Both the position numbers and the translations under genes were made by a program. The notes under the pieces were generated by a model that was not told the DNA's origin, made no database searches, and worked only from the letters and a program-made list of their open reading frames with translations. From Candidatus Dormiibacterota bacterium (GTDB taxonomy: Bacteria > Chloroflexota > Dormibacteria > Aeolococcales > Bog-877): a stretch of DNA of 64,000 nt. The stretch is from NCBI GenBank assembly GCA_963804565.1, contig CAWDQV010000001.1, positions 1,045,365-1,109,364 on the forward strand, written 5' to 3'. Position 1 is the first letter of the stretch; every line of letters begins with the position of its first letter. Of the stretch, positions 4,659-48,066 are shown in pieces.

Positions 4659-5168
4659 GTGCGCAGTTTCTATCTCGTTCGACACGCGATTGCCCGTGAG
4701 CGGGATGGTTGGCCACAACCGGACCACCTACGTCCCCTTAATGATCTCGGCTGGCGCCAGGCAGTGGTCTTGGCCGAACTACTGGCCGACGCCGGGATCG
4801 AAGCCCACTACAGCAGTCCAACCCTGCGCTGCCGCGACACCCTATTACCGCTGGCGCATGGTGCGGGCCTCCAGGTCCAGGACGACACTCGACTTCTCGA
4901 GGGAGGGCTCGCGCTTGACCAGGAGGGAGCCGAGGTTGAACTGCGGGCGCTGATCAAGGCCTACTTTGCGTCTGGCTCCCGGCGTGTCGCCGCCTGCAGT
5001 CACGGTGACGTGATTCCGCCACTGCTGGAGGCAGCCGGCGCCGCGCCTGGGTCCCGCTGCCCGAAGGGAGGCGTGTGGCGGCTGGACTTGCCGGACGACA
5101 GGGACCGGGTGTCCCAGGCGGTGTACCTCGGCCGTCCGGACCCCGGTGGAGGCTGGGACCAGCGATGA
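4659..5168 (+). CDS. sixA: histidine phosphatase family protein (SixA-like phosphohistidine phosphatase)
   Basis: 169-aa ORF with an N-terminal RHA catalytic motif (LVRHAIAR) and a later SHGDVIPPLL histidine-phosphatase motif. Its stop overlaps the start of the downstream histidine kinase (ATGA). Confidence 0.7.
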   Translation: MRSFYLVRHAIARERDGWPQPDHLRPLNDLGWRQAVVLAELLADAGIEAHYSSPTLRCRDTLLPLAHGAGLQVQDDTRLLEGGLALDQEGAEVELRALIKAYFASGSRRVAACSHGDVIPPLLEAAGAAPGSRCPKGGVWRLDLPDDRDRVSQAVYLGRPDPGGGWDQR

Positions 5169-24038: not shown

Positions 24039-24755
24039 TCAGGCCGAGGGCGGCCTCCGGCGCGGACTGCGGCGCCTTGGATTAGGTCCGGTCAAGCTCG
24101 TGCCGCAGGCCGAGCAGAATCGTGCGTCGGCTTGGTTGATTCGACCGCAGTTGGGGCACAGCCCGGCTGGTGGCGGCGGCGGAGGAGTCTCGGGCGGGAT
24201 AGTGACCGCGCCTTCCGACCCACCTCTGTGGGGTGCGTCCTCTTCCCAGATCAACCAGTGGGCAACTCCACCCAGCCCGATCAAGATGGCCAGGGCGAGG
24301 GAGATCCAGAGGAAGGTGCCTCCGTAGAGGAGCGGGCCAGCCGTGAGGTGCATCCAGGTCAGCCGCGCCGCCACGTTGACCACGGTGAAGACCAGCAGTG
24401 CGAAGGCGAGCGCCGCGCTGATCAGACTCCGATAGCCGGCCCCGAGCCCCACGGCGATGCGGGCCACCCGGGTCGCCTCCCAGAGAACCAAAACCGCAGC
24501 CAAAACCCCAGCGACCGTGCCGGCGCCTCCCCAGCCGTATGTCTGGGACCCGCAGAGGACCGAACCGATGTGAAGTGCCGCCGGGTGGAATGGTGCCCGT
24601 CCGGGCCGGAAGGGTGTGATCACCGTGGTGGCGCACATCTGCGACCAGGGCAGAAATAGATCGACGAAGTAAAGGAAGGCCAGGGCAGCGAGAACAGTCC
24701 CCTCGGCGGCCCACCTCGTGCCCCTCTGCGAGATGCTCATTGAACGTTCCTCCAT
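24039..24755 (-). CDS. hypothetical polytopic membrane protein with a C-terminal Pro-rich linker and zinc ribbon
   Basis: About six hydrophobic helices, then PPETPPPPPPAGLCPNCGRINQADARFCSACGTSL. It lies 48 bp downstream of purH, co-oriented. The overlapping 354-aa frame (24082-25146) is Arg/Gly-rich and rejected. Confidence 0.55.
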   Translation of the reverse strand: MEERSMSISQRGTRWAAEGTVLAALAFLYFVDLFLPWSQMCATTVITPFRPGRAPFHPAALHIGSVLCGSQTYGWGGAGTVAGVLAAVLVLWEATRVARIAVGLGAGYRSLISAALAFALLVFTVVNVAARLTWMHLTAGPLLYGGTFLWISLALAILIGLGGVAHWLIWEEDAPHRGGSEGAVTIPPETPPPPPPAGLCPNCGRINQADARFCSACGTSLTGPNPRRRSPRRRPPSA

Positions 24756-33696: not shown

Positions 33697-35026
33697 CCGC
33701 CAGCGCTCCCTGCGCTTCCCTTATGGGCGTTTCCAGAAGCCCCAGTCGGCGGAAACTCTCATCGATCTGAGCCAGGTAGGTCTGAAGGTCAAAACAGGCG
33801 GCCAGCTGCTCACGACTGAGCAACGCCGCAACATCGGGGCTCGCCTCCGCTGCGGCTCGGAAGTCGCCGCTCACCTGGTCGGCCTTCATCGCCAGGGCCT
33901 GAACCAGCCGGTAGGCCGACTCCCTACTCTGGCCGGCCCCGATTAGAGCCAGCAACAGCTGCTGGCTCTGGGAGATCTGTCCGCGTCGGGCCAGGTTGGC
34001 CCGCATCGCGGCCTGGTCCACCTGCAACCCCTCCAACACCGTGGCCAGGGTGCGCAGGATGTGGGCGCTGACCATCGTCGCGTCCGGCAGCACCACCCGC
34101 TCCACCGAGGAGTGAGAGATGTCCCTCTCGTGCCAGAGCGCAACGTCCTCGAGCCCGGCGACGGCCCAGCCTCGGAGCAGTCGGCTGAGCCCGGAGACCT
34201 GTTCCAAGCGGACCGGGTTGCGCTTGTGGGGCATCGCCGACGAGCCCTTCTGATGTTCGCCGAACGGCTCCCGCACCTCGCCCACCTCGGTGCGTTGGAG
34301 GTGGCGAAGGGTAGTCGCCAGACGCTCGCAGACTGCGCCCAGCACCGCCAGGGAGCAGATGTAGGCGGCGTGGCGGTCCCGCGCGACTACCTGGGTGGTG
34401 ATCTGCGCCGGCTCCAGCCCCAGCTCCCGAAGCGCCAGGACCTCGACCTCGGGGCTAAGAGTCGCGTGAGTGCCGACGGTGCCGGAGAGCTTGCCCACCT
34501 CGAGCTCGCTGGCGGCCGCCCGGAAGCGTGCCCGTGATCGGCTCAGCTCGTCGAAGTGATTGGCCATCACGAAGCCAAAGGTGACCGGCTCGGCGTGCAT
34601 TCCATGGGTCCTTCCGGCCATGGGAACCAACCGATGCCGAAGAGCCAGCTCGGCTGCTCGATCGATGAGCCGGTCGAGGTCGACCAGGATGATCTGACTT
34701 GCCGCCCGAAGTTGGAGGGCCAGGGCGGTGTCGACGACGTCCTGGCTGGTCATGCCCCGATGAATCTCGGAGCCCTCGTCGCCGAGCTGTTCCTGGACCG
34801 CGCTGACGAATGCGGCCAGGTCATGCCCCTGCTCTGACTCGATCTCGGCAACCCGCTCCAGAGTTGGCGCTTGGGCGCGCCGAAGCGGCTGCATCCGCGC
34901 CTCTGGGATCTCTCCCAGGGTTGTCCGGGCCTCGCACACCGCGAGCTCGACCTGGAGCCACAGCCGTAGTCGGGTTTGGTCCGACCACAGCACCCGCAGC
35001 TCCTTGGGCGCGTAGCGGTCGATCAT
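33689..35026 (-). CDS. purB: adenylosuccinate lyase PurB
   Basis: 445 aa. MIDRYAPKELRVLWSD... and the fumarate-lyase signature region (SSAMPHKRNP). It overlaps purC by 8 nt. Confidence 0.9.
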   Translation of the reverse strand: MIDRYAPKELRVLWSDQTRLRLWLQVELAVCEARTTLGEIPEARMQPLRRAQAPTLERVAEIESEQGHDLAAFVSAVQEQLGDEGSEIHRGMTSQDVVDTALALQLRAASQIILVDLDRLIDRAAELALRHRLVPMAGRTHGMHAEPVTFGFVMANHFDELSRSRARFRAAASELEVGKLSGTVGTHATLSPEVEVLALRELGLEPAQITTQVVARDRHAAYICSLAVLGAVCERLATTLRHLQRTEVGEVREPFGEHQKGSSAMPHKRNPVRLEQVSGLSRLLRGWAVAGLEDVALWHERDISHSSVERVVLPDATMVSAHILRTLATVLEGLQVDQAAMRANLARRGQISQSQQLLLALIGAGQSRESAYRLVQALAMKADQVSGDFRAAAEASPDVAALLSREQLAACFDLQTYLAQIDESFRRLGLLETPIREAQGALADA

Positions 35027-35399
35027 GCCCGTCCGACCGGTAATGGTCGCTGCACCAGGCGGGCCTTAGCGCGCATTTCTACCGGGCAAGATGGTCTAAC
35101 TCTAACCCGCGCAGAAGCGGTCTTCAGGCGGCTTCGATTCCCCGTCAATTGAGTCGGCGGGCCGGATCGTGGTGGGGTGCTCCAAGTGCTGACACCCCCT
35201 GCTGGACCTTCACCTTGAGTCATCCCCCACAGGGGACTCACTGGCGGGCTGCTCCAGCCGACAAGGATCCGGCCATGGGGCCAATGACCATCAGCGAGTT
35301 CGCTCGGCGCTCGCAGGCGTGGTTACCTAAGTGAGCATGCTGGGACGTCCAGCGGACGGGTACCGTGCGTGTGTGGGATCCGAGCCGGCGCCGGACTTC

Positions 35400-35426
35400 G
35401 TAACCCGCCGGCGTGTCACAGCGTTT
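35400..35426 (+). promoter_or_regulatory. putative ECF-type promoter (GTAACC-N16-CGTTT) upstream of the sigma factor gene
   Basis: The motif resembles GGAAC-N16-CGTT autoregulated ECF promoters. It lies about 25 nt upstream of the TTG start. Coordinates are approximate. Confidence 0.35.
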
Positions 35427-35452
35427 GTGGTTGCGGCCCAGGGATTAAGAAG

Positions 35453-36025
35453 TTGAGAATCCCCCCGGATCGCGAGGAGAGGCTGATCGCTCGGGCCCAG
35501 GCCGATCCTGAAAGCTTTGGCGAACTCTATGACCACTATTTCCCACCGATTTACCGGTATGTGGCGTCCCGAGTCCGCAGCGCGGAGCTGGCCGAGGACA
35601 TCACCAGCGAGGTGTTCTTCAAGGCGCTTCGGGCGATCGGGCGCTACCGACCGAGTGGTCATCCCTTCTCCGCTTGGCTTTACCAGATCGCCATCAACAC
35701 CATCACCGACCATTACCGGTCGCGCAAACGAGCTGAGGACAGCCTGGAGAGTGGTCCCGAGCTGGCCTCGTCCGCAGCCCCGGTGGACGACCAGGTTGCC
35801 GAGCTCGTCGGATTGGACCAGATCTGGCAAGCGATCGAGTCCCTACCCGAGCAGCAGCGCACGGCAATGACTCTCAAGTACGCGGAGGACCTTCCCCTCG
35901 CGGAGATCGGCAGGATCATGGGCAAGAGCGAAGGCGCGATCAAACTGCTGGTCTTCCGAGGGACCGCCACCGTGAGAGCAGCCCTACGTCCATTGAGCTT
36001 CGAGGCGGAGGAGCCCAGTGGATAG
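35453..36025 (+). CDS. ECF (sigma-70 family) RNA polymerase sigma factor
   Basis: Region 2 (FGELYDHYFPPIYRYVASRV...FSAWLYQIAINTITDHYR) and region 4 (LPEQQRTAMTLKYAEDLPLAEIGRIMGKSEGAIKLLVFRG). A TTG start at 35453 is preferred over the listed 35369 start. Its stop overlaps the downstream gene start. Confidence 0.85.
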   Translation: MRIPPDREERLIARAQADPESFGELYDHYFPPIYRYVASRVRSAELAEDITSEVFFKALRAIGRYRPSGHPFSAWLYQIAINTITDHYRSRKRAEDSLESGPELASSAAPVDDQVAELVGLDQIWQAIESLPEQQRTAMTLKYAEDLPLAEIGRIMGKSEGAIKLLVFRGTATVRAALRPLSFEAEEPSG

Positions 36026-38366
36026 GCTCAGCCGGTGGTTTCGGGGGCACCCCGGGCCCGAGGCTCCTCCGGGGGTTGACGCCGAGGTGTGGGCCATCTT
36101 CAAGGACCGCGACGGCAATCCTAACCAGGAGCTGCTTCAGGTGGCCGACGAGATCCGGATCAGGCTGCAGGCGCGCCGCGGTGCAGATCCGGACCTCGAA
36201 TTTCAGTCACGTCTTCGGGCAAGCTTGATGATCGAGGCGAGGGCGAACCGCAGTACCGGCAGCCGCCGTCCCCTGCTGGCCCTCCCCAGGCGTGCGGCAG
36301 TAGGGCTCGGTGGATTGGCTGTGGTGGCAGTTGCGGCCATCGCGGTGGTGGCAATCCCGCTTCAGCAGGGCCCGGTCATGGTCCAGGCGCCCGTTGCGGG
36401 CCACCACAAGATCCCAGTGACTCAGGCGATCCGGATCAGCTTCAATCGACCCATGGACGAGGCATCGGTGGTCCACGGTCTGAGCATCAAGCCCGCGGTC
36501 TCGTTCACGGCGAGCTGGCCCAACGCCAAGACGCTGGTGATCTCCCCGGAGCACGGGCTAGCGCCGAACGTGGGCTACGTCGTGACCATCGCCCAGCCGG
36601 ATGCCAAGGCGCAAAACGGGGCCGAGGCGGCGACGGCCATCGTCATCCCCTTCGGCACCGGGTTGACGCCCTCGACTCCTCACGGTCAGATCCCTACGGT
36701 GGTCTCGATCACCCAGGTCGCGGTCACCCAGGGGGTCACGGCGCTCAGCTACATGCCTGACGGAGCACTGTTGCTTCAGAGTTCGGGAATCCCCGTCGTC
36801 ACTCCCTCAAGCACCCCGTCCCCAAGCCCCAGCCCCAGCGCCTCCCCGAGCTTCTCGGTCAGCGCGGGTCCCCGCGCCTCGGGGCTTTCCTTTGGCACCC
36901 TCTACGTAATCAGCACCTCGATGGAACCCGTAGCCACAGACGCGGAGGGCGCGGTCGCTTCCCCAGACAGCCAGGAGATCGCCTACTGGACGCCGGGCAA
37001 CAACGGGACCCTATTGCTGGACGTGGTAGCCGCCAGCGGCAGTGGCACCCCCGAGACGCTGGCGATTTCGGCGGACTCCGACCCAGGACTCGCCTGGGTC
37101 GACAACGGCAACCTCCTCTACTCTGCCGCCGGTCAGCTCCGGGAAGTCAGTCTGGATGGCCAGGTCACCACCGTGTACCCGACAGTGCAGGTCGACCCTA
37201 GCGGATTCTTCTCCTTCTCGCCCTCCTCCCAGGCGATCTACGCCAGCCCCGATGGCACACCCACCGTCTACTCCCTCGCCGGTGGAACGGCGACCGCCCT
37301 GAGCGACTTGGTGGGCACTCCCGCCTGGTCCGCCACGGGTTCTGATCTGGCCTATATCTCGAAGAACGCCGGGACGGAGTCGATCGAGCTGACTACAGAT
37401 CTGGGCGTAGCCAGCACGTCTCTGGTGACCGTGCCCTTGGGAACTCAGTTGAGTGATCTGAGTTTTGATCCCAGCGGCACCTATTTGACCTACGTCTCGA
37501 GCTCCGCCGAACAGTCGCCCCAACTGGACGCCCTCGACATTCAGTCAGAGGTCAGCGGACCCCTTGGAAGCCTGACATCGGTCAGCAACCCGGTCTGGTC
37601 TCCCAGCGGGGACCAGCTCTCTGAGTTGGAGGAGGTGGATAACGGCAGCTCGCAATCGGTCGAGAGTCTGCTCTTGTCCGGCGAACCCCAGCTGCCGGCC
37701 AGCAACAGCTCCGCCGCGGATGCCGCCCTCTCAACGGCCTCCAACCTGGCGCAGTTCCAGGTCGACGACCAGGCTTCATCCTTATCCGGGATCACAGCGC
37801 TGCTGGCACCTGGAACAAACCTCTCACCCTCGGTTCTCCTGCCCGGTAAGTTCGACCGCTTCTACGCTATCTCCAGCACTCCGACCGCCACCGGGTCGAA
37901 CTCTTACACCGTCGACCTCCGCCTGGTCCGAGATGCCACCAGCTCATCCGGGCCCGCCTACCTTCCCGAGACGGTGACCGTGCAGAGCTCCGCGAGCGAT
38001 CCAGAGATCACCGGAATCGTTGCGGGGTCACTCACCCCGATTCCGATTGGTCCGCAGGTGATCAGCGCCTCGGCGGTGACCAAGAGCGACGGCACCACGG
38101 TGTTTGTCATCCACTTTGACTCCGACCTAAATCCGCTCACCGTCGGCCCTCAGTCGACCACGCTCCGTGTCGACGGTGACGTGGTTGCAGGCGCACAGTT
38201 CTACTATTCACCGCTCACCCGCACCGAGGTCGTCACGGTCAACGAACTACCGTCAGGGGCTGTCACTCTGACCGTCGCAGCCCCGCTCGCTGACATTGAC
38301 AACACGGCGATACAGAGTCCGTATCAGGTGGTGCTGCAGCCCGAGCCCGACAGCGGGAATAGCTAG
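36018..38366 (+). CDS. putative membrane-anchored anti-sigma factor with an extracytoplasmic Ig-like domain, Ser/Pro-rich linker, TolB-like beta-propeller and C-terminal Ig-like domains
   Basis: 782 aa. It overlaps the sigma gene by 8 nt. Residues about 1-95 are cytoplasmic, with one TM (LGGLAVVAVAAIAVVAIPL). Then comes an Ig-like module (IRISFNRPMDEASVVHGLSIKP...VVTIA) and a PSSTPSPSPSPSASPS linker. PD40/TolB-like repeats follow (SPDSQEIAYWTP, SPDGTPTVYS, SATGSDLAYIS, DPSGTYLTYVS, SPSGDQLSEL). The C-terminal beta-rich region was read as Ig-like. Confidence 0.7.
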   Translation: MDRLSRWFRGHPGPEAPPGVDAEVWAIFKDRDGNPNQELLQVADEIRIRLQARRGADPDLEFQSRLRASLMIEARANRSTGSRRPLLALPRRAAVGLGGLAVVAVAAIAVVAIPLQQGPVMVQAPVAGHHKIPVTQAIRISFNRPMDEASVVHGLSIKPAVSFTASWPNAKTLVISPEHGLAPNVGYVVTIAQPDAKAQNGAEAATAIVIPFGTGLTPSTPHGQIPTVVSITQVAVTQGVTALSYMPDGALLLQSSGIPVVTPSSTPSPSPSPSASPSFSVSAGPRASGLSFGTLYVISTSMEPVATDAEGAVASPDSQEIAYWTPGNNGTLLLDVVAASGSGTPETLAISADSDPGLAWVDNGNLLYSAAGQLREVSLDGQVTTVYPTVQVDPSGFFSFSPSSQAIYASPDGTPTVYSLAGGTATALSDLVGTPAWSATGSDLAYISKNAGTESIELTTDLGVASTSLVTVPLGTQLSDLSFDPSGTYLTYVSSSAEQSPQLDALDIQSEVSGPLGSLTSVSNPVWSPSGDQLSELEEVDNGSSQSVESLLLSGEPQLPASNSSAADAALSTASNLAQFQVDDQASSLSGITALLAPGTNLSPSVLLPGKFDRFYAISSTPTATGSNSYTVDLRLVRDATSSSGPAYLPETVTVQSSASDPEITGIVAGSLTPIPIGPQVISASAVTKSDGTTVFVIHFDSDLNPLTVGPQSTTLRVDGDVVAGAQFYYSPLTRTEVVTVNELPSGAVTLTVAAPLADIDNTAIQSPYQVVLQPEPDSGNS

Positions 38367-38398
38367 AGATAGTCGCCTGAAACCCTCGGATTGCTGGG

Positions 38399-39850
38399 TT
38401 ATTGTGCAGCGATGACGGCGGCCGCAATAGCCGCCACTTGTCGCGTCTGAGTCGACAAACTTCTCAACGTATCCGGTTGCTGATCGCGCCAAAGCTGTGC
38501 GCGCGGCAGCAGATCCGGGTGGTTTGCGATGTACTCGGTCGTTAGCTTTCCTTCGAGAAAGTCTGTGTCTTCCAGTAGTGCTGCGTGAAACGGAATGTTG
38601 GTGGTGATACCGCTGATCAGATACTCGAACAGCGCGCGGCGTCCCCGCTCCACCGCCTGATTCCGACTGTCCCCGTGGACGATGAGTTTGGCGATCATTG
38701 GATCGTAGTACGGGCTCACGGTTCCGGGACCTGCCAGTGAGCTGTCGACCCTCACGCCGGGGCCGGAGGGTTCGTGGTACGAGGTGACCCGACCCGGGGT
38801 GGGTTGAAAGTCATGCCAGGGGTCCTCGGCGTTGATGCGACACTCGATTGCCCAGCCCCGCCACTGAATCTGCTCCTGGCGCCACGGCAAGGGCTGCTGC
38901 ATCGCGACACGCAGTTGCGCCGCCACCAGGTCAACCCCGGTGACCAGTTCGGTCACAGGGTGTTCCACCTGCAGACGGGTGTTCATCTCGAGGAAGTAGA
39001 ACGAACCGTGCGATTCGATGAACTCCACGGTGCCGGCGTTTACGTAGCCGACGGCTTGGGCGGCCTTGATCGCCGCCTGACCCATCTCCTCGCGAGTCTC
39101 CGCACTGATCGCGGCGGAGGGACATTCCTCAAACAGTTTTTGATGGCGGCGCTGAATCGAGCACTCCCTTTCGCCGAGATGGATCGTGTTACCTAGGGTG
39201 TCAGCCAGCACCTGGATCTCGATGTGCCGTGGGTCGGTCACCAACCGCTCCAGGAAGACGCGCGGGTCCCCGAAGAAGCGCTGGGCCGACTCCTGGCAGC
39301 TGATGAGGGCAGCCTTTAGCTCGTCGTCGTCATGGGCCGCCCGCATCCCGATGCCGCCCCCTCCGGCGGATGCCTTGACCAATATCGGGAACCCGATCTC
39401 GCGGGCTGCCGCAAGCGCCTGCTCCGGGTCGGAGATGGCGTCCGTGCCGGGGACCACCGGGACCCCTGCCTGCTGCATCCGCTGGCGCGCGCGTACCTTG
39501 TCCCCCATCGCTCTCATCGCCTCGGCGGGCGGGCCGATGAAGGTGATGCCGGCAGCGTCGCAGGCCTCTGCCAAGAGTGGGTTCTCGGAGAGGAATCCGT
39601 AGCCGGGGTGAATTGCGTCCGCACTCGACTCCTTGGCTGCGGCGATGATCCTTTCTAAGTCGAGGTAGGACTCGCTTGGCGAAGCGGGTCCGATCTCCAG
39701 AGCGGAGTCGGCCAAGCGGGTATGGAGAGCACCCCGATCGGCTTCCGAGTAAACGGCGACGGAGCGCAGGCCGAGGTCGCGGCAGCCCCTGATCACCCGG
39801 ACGGCGATTTCGCCCCGGTTCGCGACCAGAACCGTCCCGAAGGAGCTCAT
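38399..39850 (-). CDS. biotin carboxylase subunit (PycA/AccC-type)
   Basis: 483 aa. VLVANRGEIAVRVIR, an ATP-grasp domain and a biotin-carboxylase C-terminal domain. It is paired with the carboxyltransferase/biotinyl subunit immediately upstream. Confidence 0.9.
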   Translation of the reverse strand: MSSFGTVLVANRGEIAVRVIRGCRDLGLRSVAVYSEADRGALHTRLADSALEIGPASPSESYLDLERIIAAAKESSADAIHPGYGFLSENPLLAEACDAAGITFIGPPAEAMRAMGDKVRARQRMQQAGVPVVPGTDAISDPEQALAAAREIGFPILVKASAGGGGIGMRAAHDDDELKAALISCQESAQRFFGDPRVFLERLVTDPRHIEIQVLADTLGNTIHLGERECSIQRRHQKLFEECPSAAISAETREEMGQAAIKAAQAVGYVNAGTVEFIESHGSFYFLEMNTRLQVEHPVTELVTGVDLVAAQLRVAMQQPLPWRQEQIQWRGWAIECRINAEDPWHDFQPTPGRVTSYHEPSGPGVRVDSSLAGPGTVSPYYDPMIAKLIVHGDSRNQAVERGRRALFEYLISGITTNIPFHAALLEDTDFLEGKLTTEYIANHPDLLPRAQLWRDQQPDTLRSLSTQTRQVAAIAAAVIAAQ

Positions 39851-47394: not shown

Positions 47395-48066
47395 CTAGCT
47401 TGTCTGAAGCTCGGCCCTCAGCACCAGTCGTTGGGTGTCGATCCAGAGCGGAGTGCAGGTGATCACCGTGATCCATGTCCCGCTCTTGGTCGGCTGGAGC
47501 TGGGTAACCTGGCCCGGGTACTCGGTCCACACGTCGGTGATCACGTAGGTGAACTGGTGACAGTCTCGGGTGGTTAGGACGATCTTTTCCCCGGTCTTGA
47601 GCGTCCCCAGCGGCTCGAAATTGGGCTCCCGGTGGAGGGCGTAAAGACCGTTGCCGGGTTGGCCAGGACCGGGCGAGCTCGAGTAGTGCACCACCGATCG
47701 CTCCAGCAGCATCGACCAGGTGCCGTTGCCGGCCACCCCCTCGATACCCGCCAGGCTGGGGAAGTCGATAAGGGCATACTCGGAGGCGGGGGAACCACTG
47801 CCACAGCTGGGAGCGGTGGCCAGGTTGCTGGACCCTGGCTGGGTGATGGTCTTGACCTTGGGCAGCTGCTTGCTCAGGGCCGACCCCGGCGCCTTCCACT
47901 TCTGAAGGGCCAGGCTGTCGGCGTGGGAGCGCTGCAGGAGTCCGACGACTGGGGGTACGAAGATCACCAATCCCGCCACCATCAGGACGATGCCGCTGAC
48001 GGCCAAAACCGCGCCCACCCGGCGCCTTCCCACAAGACCGGAGAGGCTACTCCGCGGACTCTTCAT
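47395..48066 (-). CDS. class E-like sortase (transpeptidase)
   Basis: N-terminal membrane anchor, conserved His (LYALHREPNF), TLxTC active-site Cys (TVITCTP) and downstream Arg (RLVLRAE). Confidence 0.8.
   Translation of the reverse strand: MKSPRSSLSGLVGRRRVGAVLAVSGIVLMVAGLVIFVPPVVGLLQRSHADSLALQKWKAPGSALSKQLPKVKTITQPGSSNLATAPSCGSGSPASEYALIDFPSLAGIEGVAGNGTWSMLLERSVVHYSSSPGPGQPGNGLYALHREPNFEPLGTLKTGEKIVLTTRDCHQFTYVITDVWTEYPGQVTQLQPTKSGTWITVITCTPLWIDTQRLVLRAELQTS

Follow-up and report, generated by a model that had tools for sequence, protein, structure and literature searches.

A BldN-like ECF sigma factor gene overlapping the gene of a candidate RsbN-type anti-sigma factor with an Ig-like and beta-propeller ectodomain in Candidatus Dormibacterota

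Organization of the locus

The window, a 64,000-nucleotide stretch of a genome from the uncultured soil phylum Candidatus Dormibacterota, carries two overlapping genes beside purB, purC, and a biotin carboxylase gene of a purine-synthesis cluster. The first gene (35453..36025, + strand) starts with TTG and encodes a stress-type, BldN-like ECF sigma factor of 190 aa, and the second (36018..38366, + strand) starts with GTG and encodes a 782-aa protein, here called the partner, which is a candidate single-pass (N-in) anti-sigma factor. The partner GTG (36018-36020) precedes the sigma TAG (36023-36025), giving an overlap of 8 nt (36018-36025), and a Shine-Dalgarno-like GGAGG element (36007..36011, + strand) lies within the end of the sigma gene, 6 nt 5' of that GTG, an arrangement that bears out the translational coupling of an ECF sigma factor to a membrane partner claimed in the original prediction. 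The partner gene lies directly 3' of the sigma gene with an overlap of 4–8 nt in 14/14 Dormibacterota loci, and the pair, the overlap, and the purB/accC neighbourhood are kept across Dormibacterota genomes. The same order and an overlap of 4–8 nt recur in three distant relatives, so that the pairing is conserved down to partner identities of 24–35%. Homologues of the partner (n = 47) come nearly all from Candidatus Dormibacterota MAGs. Rfam gave no match in the 426-nt intergenic region or the first part of the operon, and a scan of 35000-38500 found no sigma-70-type promoter and terminator-like matches no more than expected by chance.

The sigma factor

Pfam recognizes Sigma70_r2 (E 9.5e-20) and Sigma70_r4_2 (E 3.8e-14) in the first gene product, and TIGR02937 scores 96.9 bits against a cut-off of 42.9. 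Regions sigma2 and sigma4 are the only ones present in its 190 aa, which makes it an ECF (group 4) sigma-70 factor, a group defined by these two regions only and a length of about 170–220 aa. The top NCBIfam model is that of the BldN family (TIGR02952, 137 bits, below the cut-off of 206), and the best PDB match is BldN itself (6dxo_A, E 4.8e-28; runner-up 1.5e-19), with identities of 48% in sigma2 and 44% in sigma4; by sequence comparison, BldN is by far the closest solved relative. Of the BldN residues in contact with RsbN helix 3, Phe15, Tyr19, Asp20, Phe48, and Leu52 are identical here and Glu11 is replaced by Asp, and the aligned Dormibacterota orthologues show the same pattern, a conservation that may simply be typical of the ECF clade.

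The open reading frame extends upstream of the TTG (35369..36025, + strand, with the extension). In 14 orthologues, homology sets in at the first residue of the reading from TTG 35453 and the start codons (GTG/TTG/ATG) share one alignment column, which supports the start proposed earlier. With the start codons aligned at 35453, the sigma factor has no N-terminal pro-sequence, because the conserved promoter sits inside the only upstream in-frame extension; in this it is unlike BldN, as such a pro-sequence is a trait of the BldN family and ECF121 (PMC7826278).

The promoter

A putative ECF-type promoter (35400..35425, + strand), identified by motif conservation, consists of GTAACC as the -35 element (35400-35405), a 16-nt spacer, and CGTT as the -10 element (35422-35425). 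The window holds a single copy of the motif GTAACC-N16-CGTT, where 0.03 would be expected, and the motif is invariant among 14 Dormibacterota upstream regions with diverged flanks, in agreement with the ECF-like promoter first proposed ahead of the sigma gene. It lies upstream of the sigma gene at every locus with enough upstream sequence, L019 excepted. The identical motif and spacing are found in the Streptomyces bldN-rsbN intergenic region, upstream of rsbN (at 4728 in L016 and 4682 in L017), and the Streptomyces rsbN promoter has been reported to be BldN-dependent (PMC4255298). The element is presumably read by the sigma factor encoded just downstream, as positive autoregulation. A relaxed search for regulon members across the whole window (GTAAC-N16-18-CGT) returned this single site and no others.

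The cytoplasmic head and membrane anchor of the partner

The partner begins with a head of ~92 aa, of which residues 1-80 (36018..36257, + strand) form a candidate class III (RsbN-type) anti-sigma domain on the evidence of AlphaFold2 (AF2) models, profile comparison, and invariant columns. Three helices (22-27, 37-52, and 60-79) are predicted within about 80 residues, joined by linkers without regular secondary structure (pTM 0.35). A basic stretch comes next, and then a single transmembrane (TM) helix at residues 93-115 (36294..36362, + strand), which is the highest hydropathy window of the protein. Five K/R residues flank this segment on its N side and one on its C side, which implies an N-in topology, in agreement with the cytoplasmic N-domain of about 95 aa and single TM helix described in the original prediction. 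The helices are well conserved across orthologues of 40–69% identity, with L66, R67, and L70 invariant and position 50 (L50) hydrophobic throughout the family.

The partner contains no cysteine at all, and the HxxxCxxC motif is consequently absent. Pfam searches of each of 31 heads at E<=10 returned scattered chance matches and no zf-HC2, RskA, or RseA_N, and the profile of the N-domain against PDB sequences matched only designed helical repeats and chance entries. The head therefore carries no class I anti-sigma signature, as the non-ZAS assignment had it. Structural comparison gave no three-helix-bundle match of the class I kind. In RsbN, a cytoplasmic N-terminal region of ~90 aa holds three helices with flexible linkers between them and leads into one TM helix (PMC6101532), and the predicted model of the partner head has this class III layout of three helices and then one TM helix.

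Relationship of the head to RsbN

Searched against 1.84e9 proteins, the head profile retrieved its own family and only two other proteins, both containing DUF5667 (P0234, E 6e-5, and P0239, E 6e-4; 413–419 aa). Their genes lie 80 nt downstream of those of sigma factors 70% identical to BldN in sigma2, next to acyltransferase/epimerase genes as at the Streptomyces locus. The alignment of P0239 with Streptomyces RsbN is colinear and spans the helices, the TM segment, and DUF5667 (E 8e-18, a value owed mostly to DUF5667), and that of P0234 with RsbN starts shortly ahead of the TM segment and continues across DUF5667 (E 6e-14). Judged by DUF5667, synteny, and the 70%-identical BldN, both proteins are RsbN orthologues. 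An RsbN sequence was obtained from L016 despite a frameshift and was confirmed against 6dxo_D; neither L017, a Streptomyces assembly that is rearranged or frameshifted, nor L018, a fragment of a paralogous sigma, yielded a usable one. A homologue search with RsbN as query returned, among the matches listed, near-identical Streptomyces sequences only, and for this reason the RsbN profile was not deepened.

Directly compared, the partner head and S. venezuelae RsbN show a faint similarity at the sequence level. HHalign places residues 49-72 on 49-72 of RsbN (P 0.04–0.07) and hmmsearch 50-73 on 50-73 (single-target P about 1e-3), and these two alignments agree with a two-step mapping via P0239 in setting R67, L70, and L50 of the family on R67, L70, and L50 of RsbN, the key contacts singled out in the crystal-structure paper (PMC6101532). 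Against an RsbN profile built from Streptomyces sequences alone, the 31 heads have a median score of 3.0 bits and their shuffles one of -1.3, with 21/31 heads above the 95th percentile of the shuffles, in a set whose sequences are not independent. Such marginal direct similarity would also be expected if the head were an independently evolved or degenerate sigma-binding helical segment, for example a zinc-less remnant of class I, whose likeness to RsbN is convergent while the partner still acts as an inhibitor. Many anti-sigma factors have short amphipathic helices of the form P-x-F-x3-L-R-x-x-L ahead of a TM segment, and the N-domain of P0239 alone, searched against the PDB, did not match RsbN (6dxo_D), two points that favour convergence. 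We nevertheless hold this explanation to be unlikely, and the bridging orthologues together with the concordant register support kinship of the head with the Streptomyces RsbN class III anti-sigma domain and so speak against an orphan class.

The ectodomain

The C-terminal part of the partner, about 665 aa or 85% of the protein, follows the TM helix. It opens with a Big_5 (SbsA-type) Ig-like domain (residues 121-214; 36378..36659, + strand), predicted by AF2 as a beta-sandwich and matched by Pfam PF13205 over residues 123-212 (35.8 bits, cut-off 23.6, E 1.5e-8), which substantiates the SbsA-like domain recognized earlier. Big_5 is present in 32/32 family members; several distant relatives have two Big_5 stretches.

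The next module is a PD40-type beta-propeller (residues 227-554; 36696..37679, + strand), probably of seven blades. A propeller had been anticipated in the original prediction, and the TolB/PD40 signal in the sequence of the partner alone is weak, with 21 bits for NCBIfam TolB against cut-offs of 343–405 and no PD40 match from Pfam. A Ser/Pro/Thr-rich loop (residues 256-292; 36783..36893, + strand; 62% S/P/T) is predicted to be disordered, with pLDDT below 50 at 263-288 and confident strands on either side, and it varies in length and sequence across the family. This is the (Ser/Pro)n stretch that had been taken for a linker joining the Ig domain to the propeller, and it lies instead inside the propeller region because the first blade-like strands (227-255) precede it.

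Beyond the propeller, a helical hairpin (565-595) and a four-stranded sheet (614-669) without a Pfam match (37710..38024, + strand; AF2, pLDDT about 66–80) lead to a C-terminal beta-sandwich (residues 681-773; 38058..38336, + strand; AF2 strands, pLDDT about 72–90) that is Ig-like by prediction only. The C-terminal Ig-like modules envisaged in the original prediction are thereby reduced to this one sandwich, with the hairpin and sheet occupying 565-669. The sandwich carries an F-x-S-D-L-N-P-x-T-V motif in register with the N-terminal Big_5 domain, and its interpretation as a second Big_5 domain was rejected since the likeness is not significant (P 0.24). PF18915 (DUF5667), the domain found in RsbN homologues, has no match in the partner.

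A sortase gene does lie near the pair (47395-48066, - strand), and the partner was rejected as a sortase substrate since it has no LPXTG or LAXTG motif, as previously noted; in sortase substrates such a motif stands at the C-terminus together with a hydrophobic tail. It was also rejected as a TolB orthologue in view of its score far below the NCBIfam cut-offs and its neighbours purB, purC, and biotin carboxylase, with no tol-pal operon. TolB further differs in its N-terminal domain and signal peptide, both absent from the partner, and in having six blades rather than probably seven. With no tol-pal context and no TolB N-domain, the suggestion of peptidoglycan or a Tol-Pal component as ligand finds no evidence. 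S9 peptidases also have PD40 propellers, and the partner differs from them in lacking a peptidase domain.

Domains of the Big_5 and PD40 types are characteristic of surface and periplasmic proteins, and public databases annotate the family as 'Ig-like domain-containing' or 'TolB family' proteins. Together with the size of the ectodomain, this would fit a surface or envelope protein (an adhesin, a wall-associated scaffold, or a peptide-binding protein) that merely resides in a sigma operon, with the head as a membrane-anchoring tail. Such an explanation is improbable, as it is opposed by the invariant head residues and conserved helices, by the relationship of the head to those of RsbN orthologues, and by the retention of the stop/start overlap in the most distant relatives, which is usual for a cognate anti-sigma factor and unusual for a mere regulon member.

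Proposed mechanism

Together, the two genes probably encode a BldN/RsbN-type (class III) sigma/anti-sigma switch with coupled translation, in which DUF5667 has been replaced by an Ig/propeller sensor. The sigma factor would recognize GTAACC-N16-CGTT and transcribe its own operon, and the 782-aa partner would insert into the membrane with its N-terminus in the cytoplasm. There, the three-helix head would clamp the sigma factor between sigma2 and sigma4 and keep it at the membrane; helix 3 would touch sigma2 through Arg67 and Leu70, and helix 2 would touch sigma4 through Leu50. The Big_5 Ig domain, the PD40 propeller, the alpha/beta module, and the beta-sandwich would together form the extracytoplasmic sensor. 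The anti-sigma factor would be inactivated or removed in response to a cell-surface signal, for which a protein or peptide ligand, as bound by other PD40 propellers, is the most plausible candidate, and the freed sigma factor would then amplify the operon and switch on a regulon. FecR-type regulators of other ECF systems set a precedent for a pro-sigma or dual role, in which the partner would be required for activation of the sigma factor instead of or besides inhibiting it. That role is very improbable here, since the head has no FecR or other Pfam signature and RsbN, its closest characterized relative, is a pure inhibitor whose deletion leads to precocious development (PMC6101532). The conserved pairing, the promoter, and the features of the N-domain all support the central proposal of the original prediction, an ECF sigma factor with a membrane-anchored non-ZAS anti-sigma candidate bearing an Ig/propeller ectodomain.

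Comparison with known systems

The Streptomyces sigma-BldN/RsbN pair (ECF121; PDB 6DXO) resembles the Dormibacterota pair in joining an ECF sigma gene to an adjoining downstream gene for a single-pass membrane protein, in having GTAACC-N16-CGTT at both loci, and in a cytoplasmic head of three helices within about 80–90 residues that lacks Cys or a zinc motif and has a conserved helix-3 Arg and Leu and helix-2 Leu in the RsbN register. The two systems differ in the ectodomain, which is DUF5667 in RsbN and Big_5, PD40 propeller, alpha/beta module, and beta-sandwich in the partner. They also differ in operon structure, as rsbN is separate and has its own promoter, whereas here the genes overlap and share one. 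Phylum and neighbourhood are likewise distinct, with an acyltransferase/epimerase locus in Actinomycetota and a purine-synthesis cluster in Dormibacterota.

Class I anti-sigma factors (RseA, RsiW, RslA, and ChrR; including the ZAS subgroup) are similarly membrane-anchored with the N-terminus inside and encoded downstream of, and coupled to, an autoregulated ECF sigma gene, and some members have a large extracytoplasmic sensor. The partner departs from them in lacking HxxxCxxC, Cys, any match to a Pfam anti-sigma domain (ASD) family, and a three-helix-bundle structural match. Transmembrane sensors with extracytoplasmic beta-propellers include the Ser/Thr kinase PknD (NHL propeller) and the Reg_prop hybrid two-component systems, and the partner would share with them the use of an outward-facing propeller to bind ligands in a signalling protein with a single membrane pass, unlike them having a candidate anti-sigma domain rather than a kinase as its cytoplasmic output. 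In the searchable part of the literature, no anti-sigma factor with a PD40 propeller was found described.

Implications

The locus appears to hold a known kind of switch, BldN/RsbN, fitted with a new sensor in a phylum new to it. To our knowledge, RsbN is the only structurally characterized class III anti-sigma factor. Its homologues were reported only from Streptomyces in the structure paper (PMC6101532), and an earlier review placed RsbN homologues adjoining bldN in other actinomycetes (PMC4255298). If the assignment is correct, class III anti-sigma factors would extend to another phylum, with an RsbN-type head combined with a wholly different sensor, and further members could be sought with a minimal conserved signature that consists, in helix 3, of D-P-E, five residues, and R-A-x-L and, in helix 2, of hydrophobic anchors. 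A more speculative possibility is that the RsbN-type head is an old, fast-evolving, and portable module that has been joined to different sensor ectodomains across phyla, and that the Dormibacterota pair is a phylum-wide single-copy core switch, reading a protein or peptide signal at the surface and controlling a developmental or envelope programme comparable to the BldN regulon. Under the class III assignment itself, the partner, a protein conserved across Dormibacterota, would be re-annotated as a signalling component rather than an 'Ig-like domain-containing' or 'TolB family' protein, and for a phylum with almost no experimentally studied biology this would indicate a testable regulatory circuit with a defined promoter motif.

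Conserved organization of the sigma/partner pair

The upstream ORF of the pair (35369–36025, forward strand) has Sigma70_r2 and Sigma70_r4_2 as its only domains, which identifies it as an ECF sigma factor, and it overlaps the ORF of a 782-aa membrane protein with a GTG start, hereafter the partner (36018–38366, forward strand). The GTG of the partner at 36018–36020 and the TAG of the sigma gene at 36023–36025, both on the forward strand, give the 8-nt overlap described originally, and a GGAGG lies 6 nt 5′ of the GTG on the same strand. The TTG at 35453, previously proposed as the probable sigma start, is upheld by comparison of 14 Dormibacterota loci: in every one, homology starts with the first residue of the protein read from this TTG, and the start codons (GTG, TTG, or ATG) share one alignment column. 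The only possible N-terminal extension, from GTG 35369, has the promoter motif inside it, so that the sigma factor is read as having no pro-sequence. The pair is flanked in this window (G+C ∼65%) by purC and purB upstream and biotin carboxylase downstream, all on the reverse strand. The partner and biotin carboxylase genes converge and are 32 nt apart. A weak terminator-like hairpin (38385–38398, forward strand) falls between them; such sites are no more numerous in the region than in shuffled sequence.

Conservation of the sigma-partner pairing in relatives, a check proposed with the original prediction, was surveyed in the 14 Dormibacterota genome loci, and the gene order purB (reverse), sigma, partner, accC (reverse) is kept in 14/14, with identities of 65–87% for the sigma factor and 40–65% for the partner. 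Three distant partner homologues with 24–35% identity (P0042, P0045, and P0046) are encoded by genes that overlap a preceding ECF sigma gene by 4 nt within the same genomic setting, and because the arrangement is kept in all of these loci, the pairing and its coupling are old within the lineage. The purB/accC flanks are retained phylum-wide. Homologues of the partner (40–69% identical) come almost entirely from Candidatus Dormibacterota MAGs and carry the public names ‘Ig-like domain-containing’ or ‘TolB family’ protein. Two syntenic loci bear other titles, namely L001 (DATKSI010000034.1, ‘Candidatus Micrarchaeaceae archaeon’; sigma 85%, partner 65% identity) and L012 (DATKSV010000027.1, ‘Candidatus Nanopelagicaceae bacterium’; sigma 70%, partner 43% identity), titles that suggest either wrong taxonomic assignment or contaminated bins. 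The pair lies on the strand opposite to the surrounding purine-synthesis and biotin-carboxylase genes (about 24800–47300 in the window; also L001–L014, L019, and L020), with formyltransferase, AIR synthase, purC, and purB on one side and carboxylase genes, purD, guaA, and IMPDH on the other. A 238-aa ORF (24039–24755, reverse strand) with a C-terminal zinc-ribbon/double-zinc-ribbon domain is also present.

A promoter motif shared with the bldN-rsbN locus

At the ECF-like promoter predicted ahead of the sigma gene, cGTAACC-N16-CGTT is invariant amid diverged flanks across the 14 Dormibacterota loci. GTAACC-N16-CGTT occurs just once in the 64-kb window (0.03 occurrences expected), at 35400–35425 (forward strand), and L020, a far more divergent Dormibacterota locus, has it as well. 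Neither a sigma-70-type promoter nor an Rfam element was found in the 426-nt intergenic region. The same motif with the same spacing is present in the Streptomyces bldN-rsbN intergenic region (position 4728 of locus L016 and 4682 of L017), where the rsbN promoter is reported to be BldN-dependent (PMC4255298). This sharing is a consistent lead, not proof, that the Dormibacterota pair is linked to Streptomyces BldN/RsbN. In L003 (3150–3175) and L013 (3200–3225), which come from two Dormibacterota genomes, the complete motif is repeated ∼190 nt upstream of the main copy. Most of the closer Dormibacterota loci share another conserved box, GGTACCGTKN5-6GGTGGG, placed about 22–42 nt upstream of the −35 element (35358–35378 in the window, forward strand). 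The box has diverged in L009 and L010 and might be bound by a regulator.

Relationship of the sigma factor and the partner head to BldN and RsbN

The sigma factor is BldN-like in sequence. Among NCBIfam models the BldN family scores best, though under the cut-off, and its best solved relative is Streptomyces venezuelae BldN (6dxo_A; E 4.8e-28, with the next best sigma factor at 1.5e-19), with 48% identity in sigma2 and 44% in sigma4. BldN has been assigned to group ECF121 (PMC7826278). The BldN residues Phe15, Tyr19, Asp20, Phe48, and Leu52, which contact helix 3 of the anti-sigma factor RsbN, are identical in the window sigma factor and its Dormibacterota orthologues, and a further contact residue, Glu11, is conservatively replaced by Asp.

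The presumed cytoplasmic N-terminal head of the partner, in which L66, R67, and L70 are invariant in the Dormibacterota family, was compared with an RsbN query taken from a Streptomyces locus adjoining bldN and confirmed against the RsbN chain 6dxo_D. Alignment by hhalign places residues 49–72 on 49–72 (P 0.07 for a single sequence, 0.04 when a Streptomyces profile is used), and hmmsearch places 50–73 on 50–73 (single-target P about 1e-3). A Streptomyces-only RsbN profile gives the 31 heads a median of 3.0 bits vs. −1.3 for shuffles, with 21/31 heads above the 95th percentile of the shuffles. These direct comparisons share one register, and their signals are weak.

A search of 1.84 billion representative proteins with the head profile matched 32 proteins, nearly all of them members of the partner family (600–940 aa, with Big_5 and in some cases PD40). 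A further two, to repetitive proteins, look like chance matches. The matches P0234 and P0239 (E 6e-5 and 6e-4) are 413–419-aa proteins with DUF5667, which is the ectodomain of RsbN. Each is encoded 80 nt 3′ of an ECF sigma gene whose product is 70% identical to BldN sigma2, with acyltransferase and epimerase genes downstream, as at the Streptomyces bldN-rsbN locus. P0239 matches Streptomyces RsbN at E 8e-18, a score that rests mainly on DUF5667, and is colinear with it over helices 1, 2, and 3, the TM segment, and DUF5667. By itself, the P0239 head did not retrieve 6dxo_D from the PDB, in keeping with the fast divergence reported for RsbN (PMC4255298). Chained mapping from the window protein through P0239 to RsbN (R67 to R110 to R67; L70 to L113 to L70; L50 to L93 to L50) gives the register of the direct alignments. 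The sigma factor and the head are probably homologous to BldN and RsbN.

P0234 and P0239 (loci L021–L024) are RsbN orthologues of metagenomic origin, and the cytoplasmic region of each has two tandem copies of the helix 2-linker-helix 3 motif L..LA..L....P.P.F..RLR..L..EA, so that the element presumed to bind the sigma factor is internally duplicated. Two Streptomyces loci reached via truncated BldN fragments show frameshifts in bldN and rsbN (L016, 4001–6110) and an apparent rearrangement removing rsbN (L017, 4001–5300); both are probably assembly errors.

Architecture of the partner

The partner has a single hydrophobic segment (residues 93–115) with positive charges on its N side. The predicted SbsA-like Ig domain corresponds to Pfam Big_5 at residues 123–212, present in 32/32 family members and modelled by AF2 as a beta-sandwich at 121–214 (mean pLDDT 74.8 for the whole partner and about 90 over 290–510). 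The propeller, for which five or more PD40/TolB-type blades had been expected, is seen in several ways: PD40 is matched in 12/32 members, a PDB search with the family profile matches TolB chains across two to three blades (E 1.8e-10), about 27 strands are modelled from 227 to 554, and seven SPDG-like segments are readable in the sequence. The propeller is therefore real, belongs to the PD40 type, and is likely to have seven blades. A Ser/Pro-rich stretch exists as described, in the form of a disordered loop (263–288), but it follows the first blade-like strands and so does not link the Ig domain to the propeller. The model continues with two helices (565–595), a four-stranded sheet (614–669), and a beta-sandwich (681–773), so that a C-terminal module of Ig-like shape is predicted, although its resemblance to Big_5 is confined to a short motif and is not significant.

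Other identities for the partner fare poorly. A class I/ZAS anti-sigma factor was considered and rejected; the whole protein contains no cysteine. Assignment as TolB is contradicted by scores far under the TolB cut-offs and by the lack of a TolB N-domain and of a tol-pal context. The sortase noted 9 kb downstream does have a sortase domain (47395–48066, reverse strand; Pfam Sortase, E 1e-17), adjoining IMPDH and glutamate dehydrogenase, but the partner contains no LPXTG/LAXTG motif, as originally observed, and is rejected as a sortase substrate.

A proposed mechanism

The partner is likely to be the anti-sigma factor of the sigma factor, and the pair probably works like BldN/RsbN, from which it differs in its phylum, in its purine-synthesis neighbourhood, in having overlapping genes with a shared promoter and a sigma factor without a pro-sequence, and in carrying a Big_5/PD40 ectodomain in place of DUF5667. 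A limited literature search found no published anti-sigma factor whose ectodomain includes a PD40 propeller. The sigma factor would transcribe from its own promoter, and translational coupling would ensure that the anti-sigma factor is made in step with it. The head would clamp the sigma factor at the membrane in the manner of RsbN, while the Ig/propeller ectodomain would sense something outside. The PD40 propellers of TolB and S9 peptidases bind proteins or peptides, and by analogy the likeliest kind of signal is a ligand of this sort. Once the partner was inactivated, it would free the sigma factor to act on its putative regulon.
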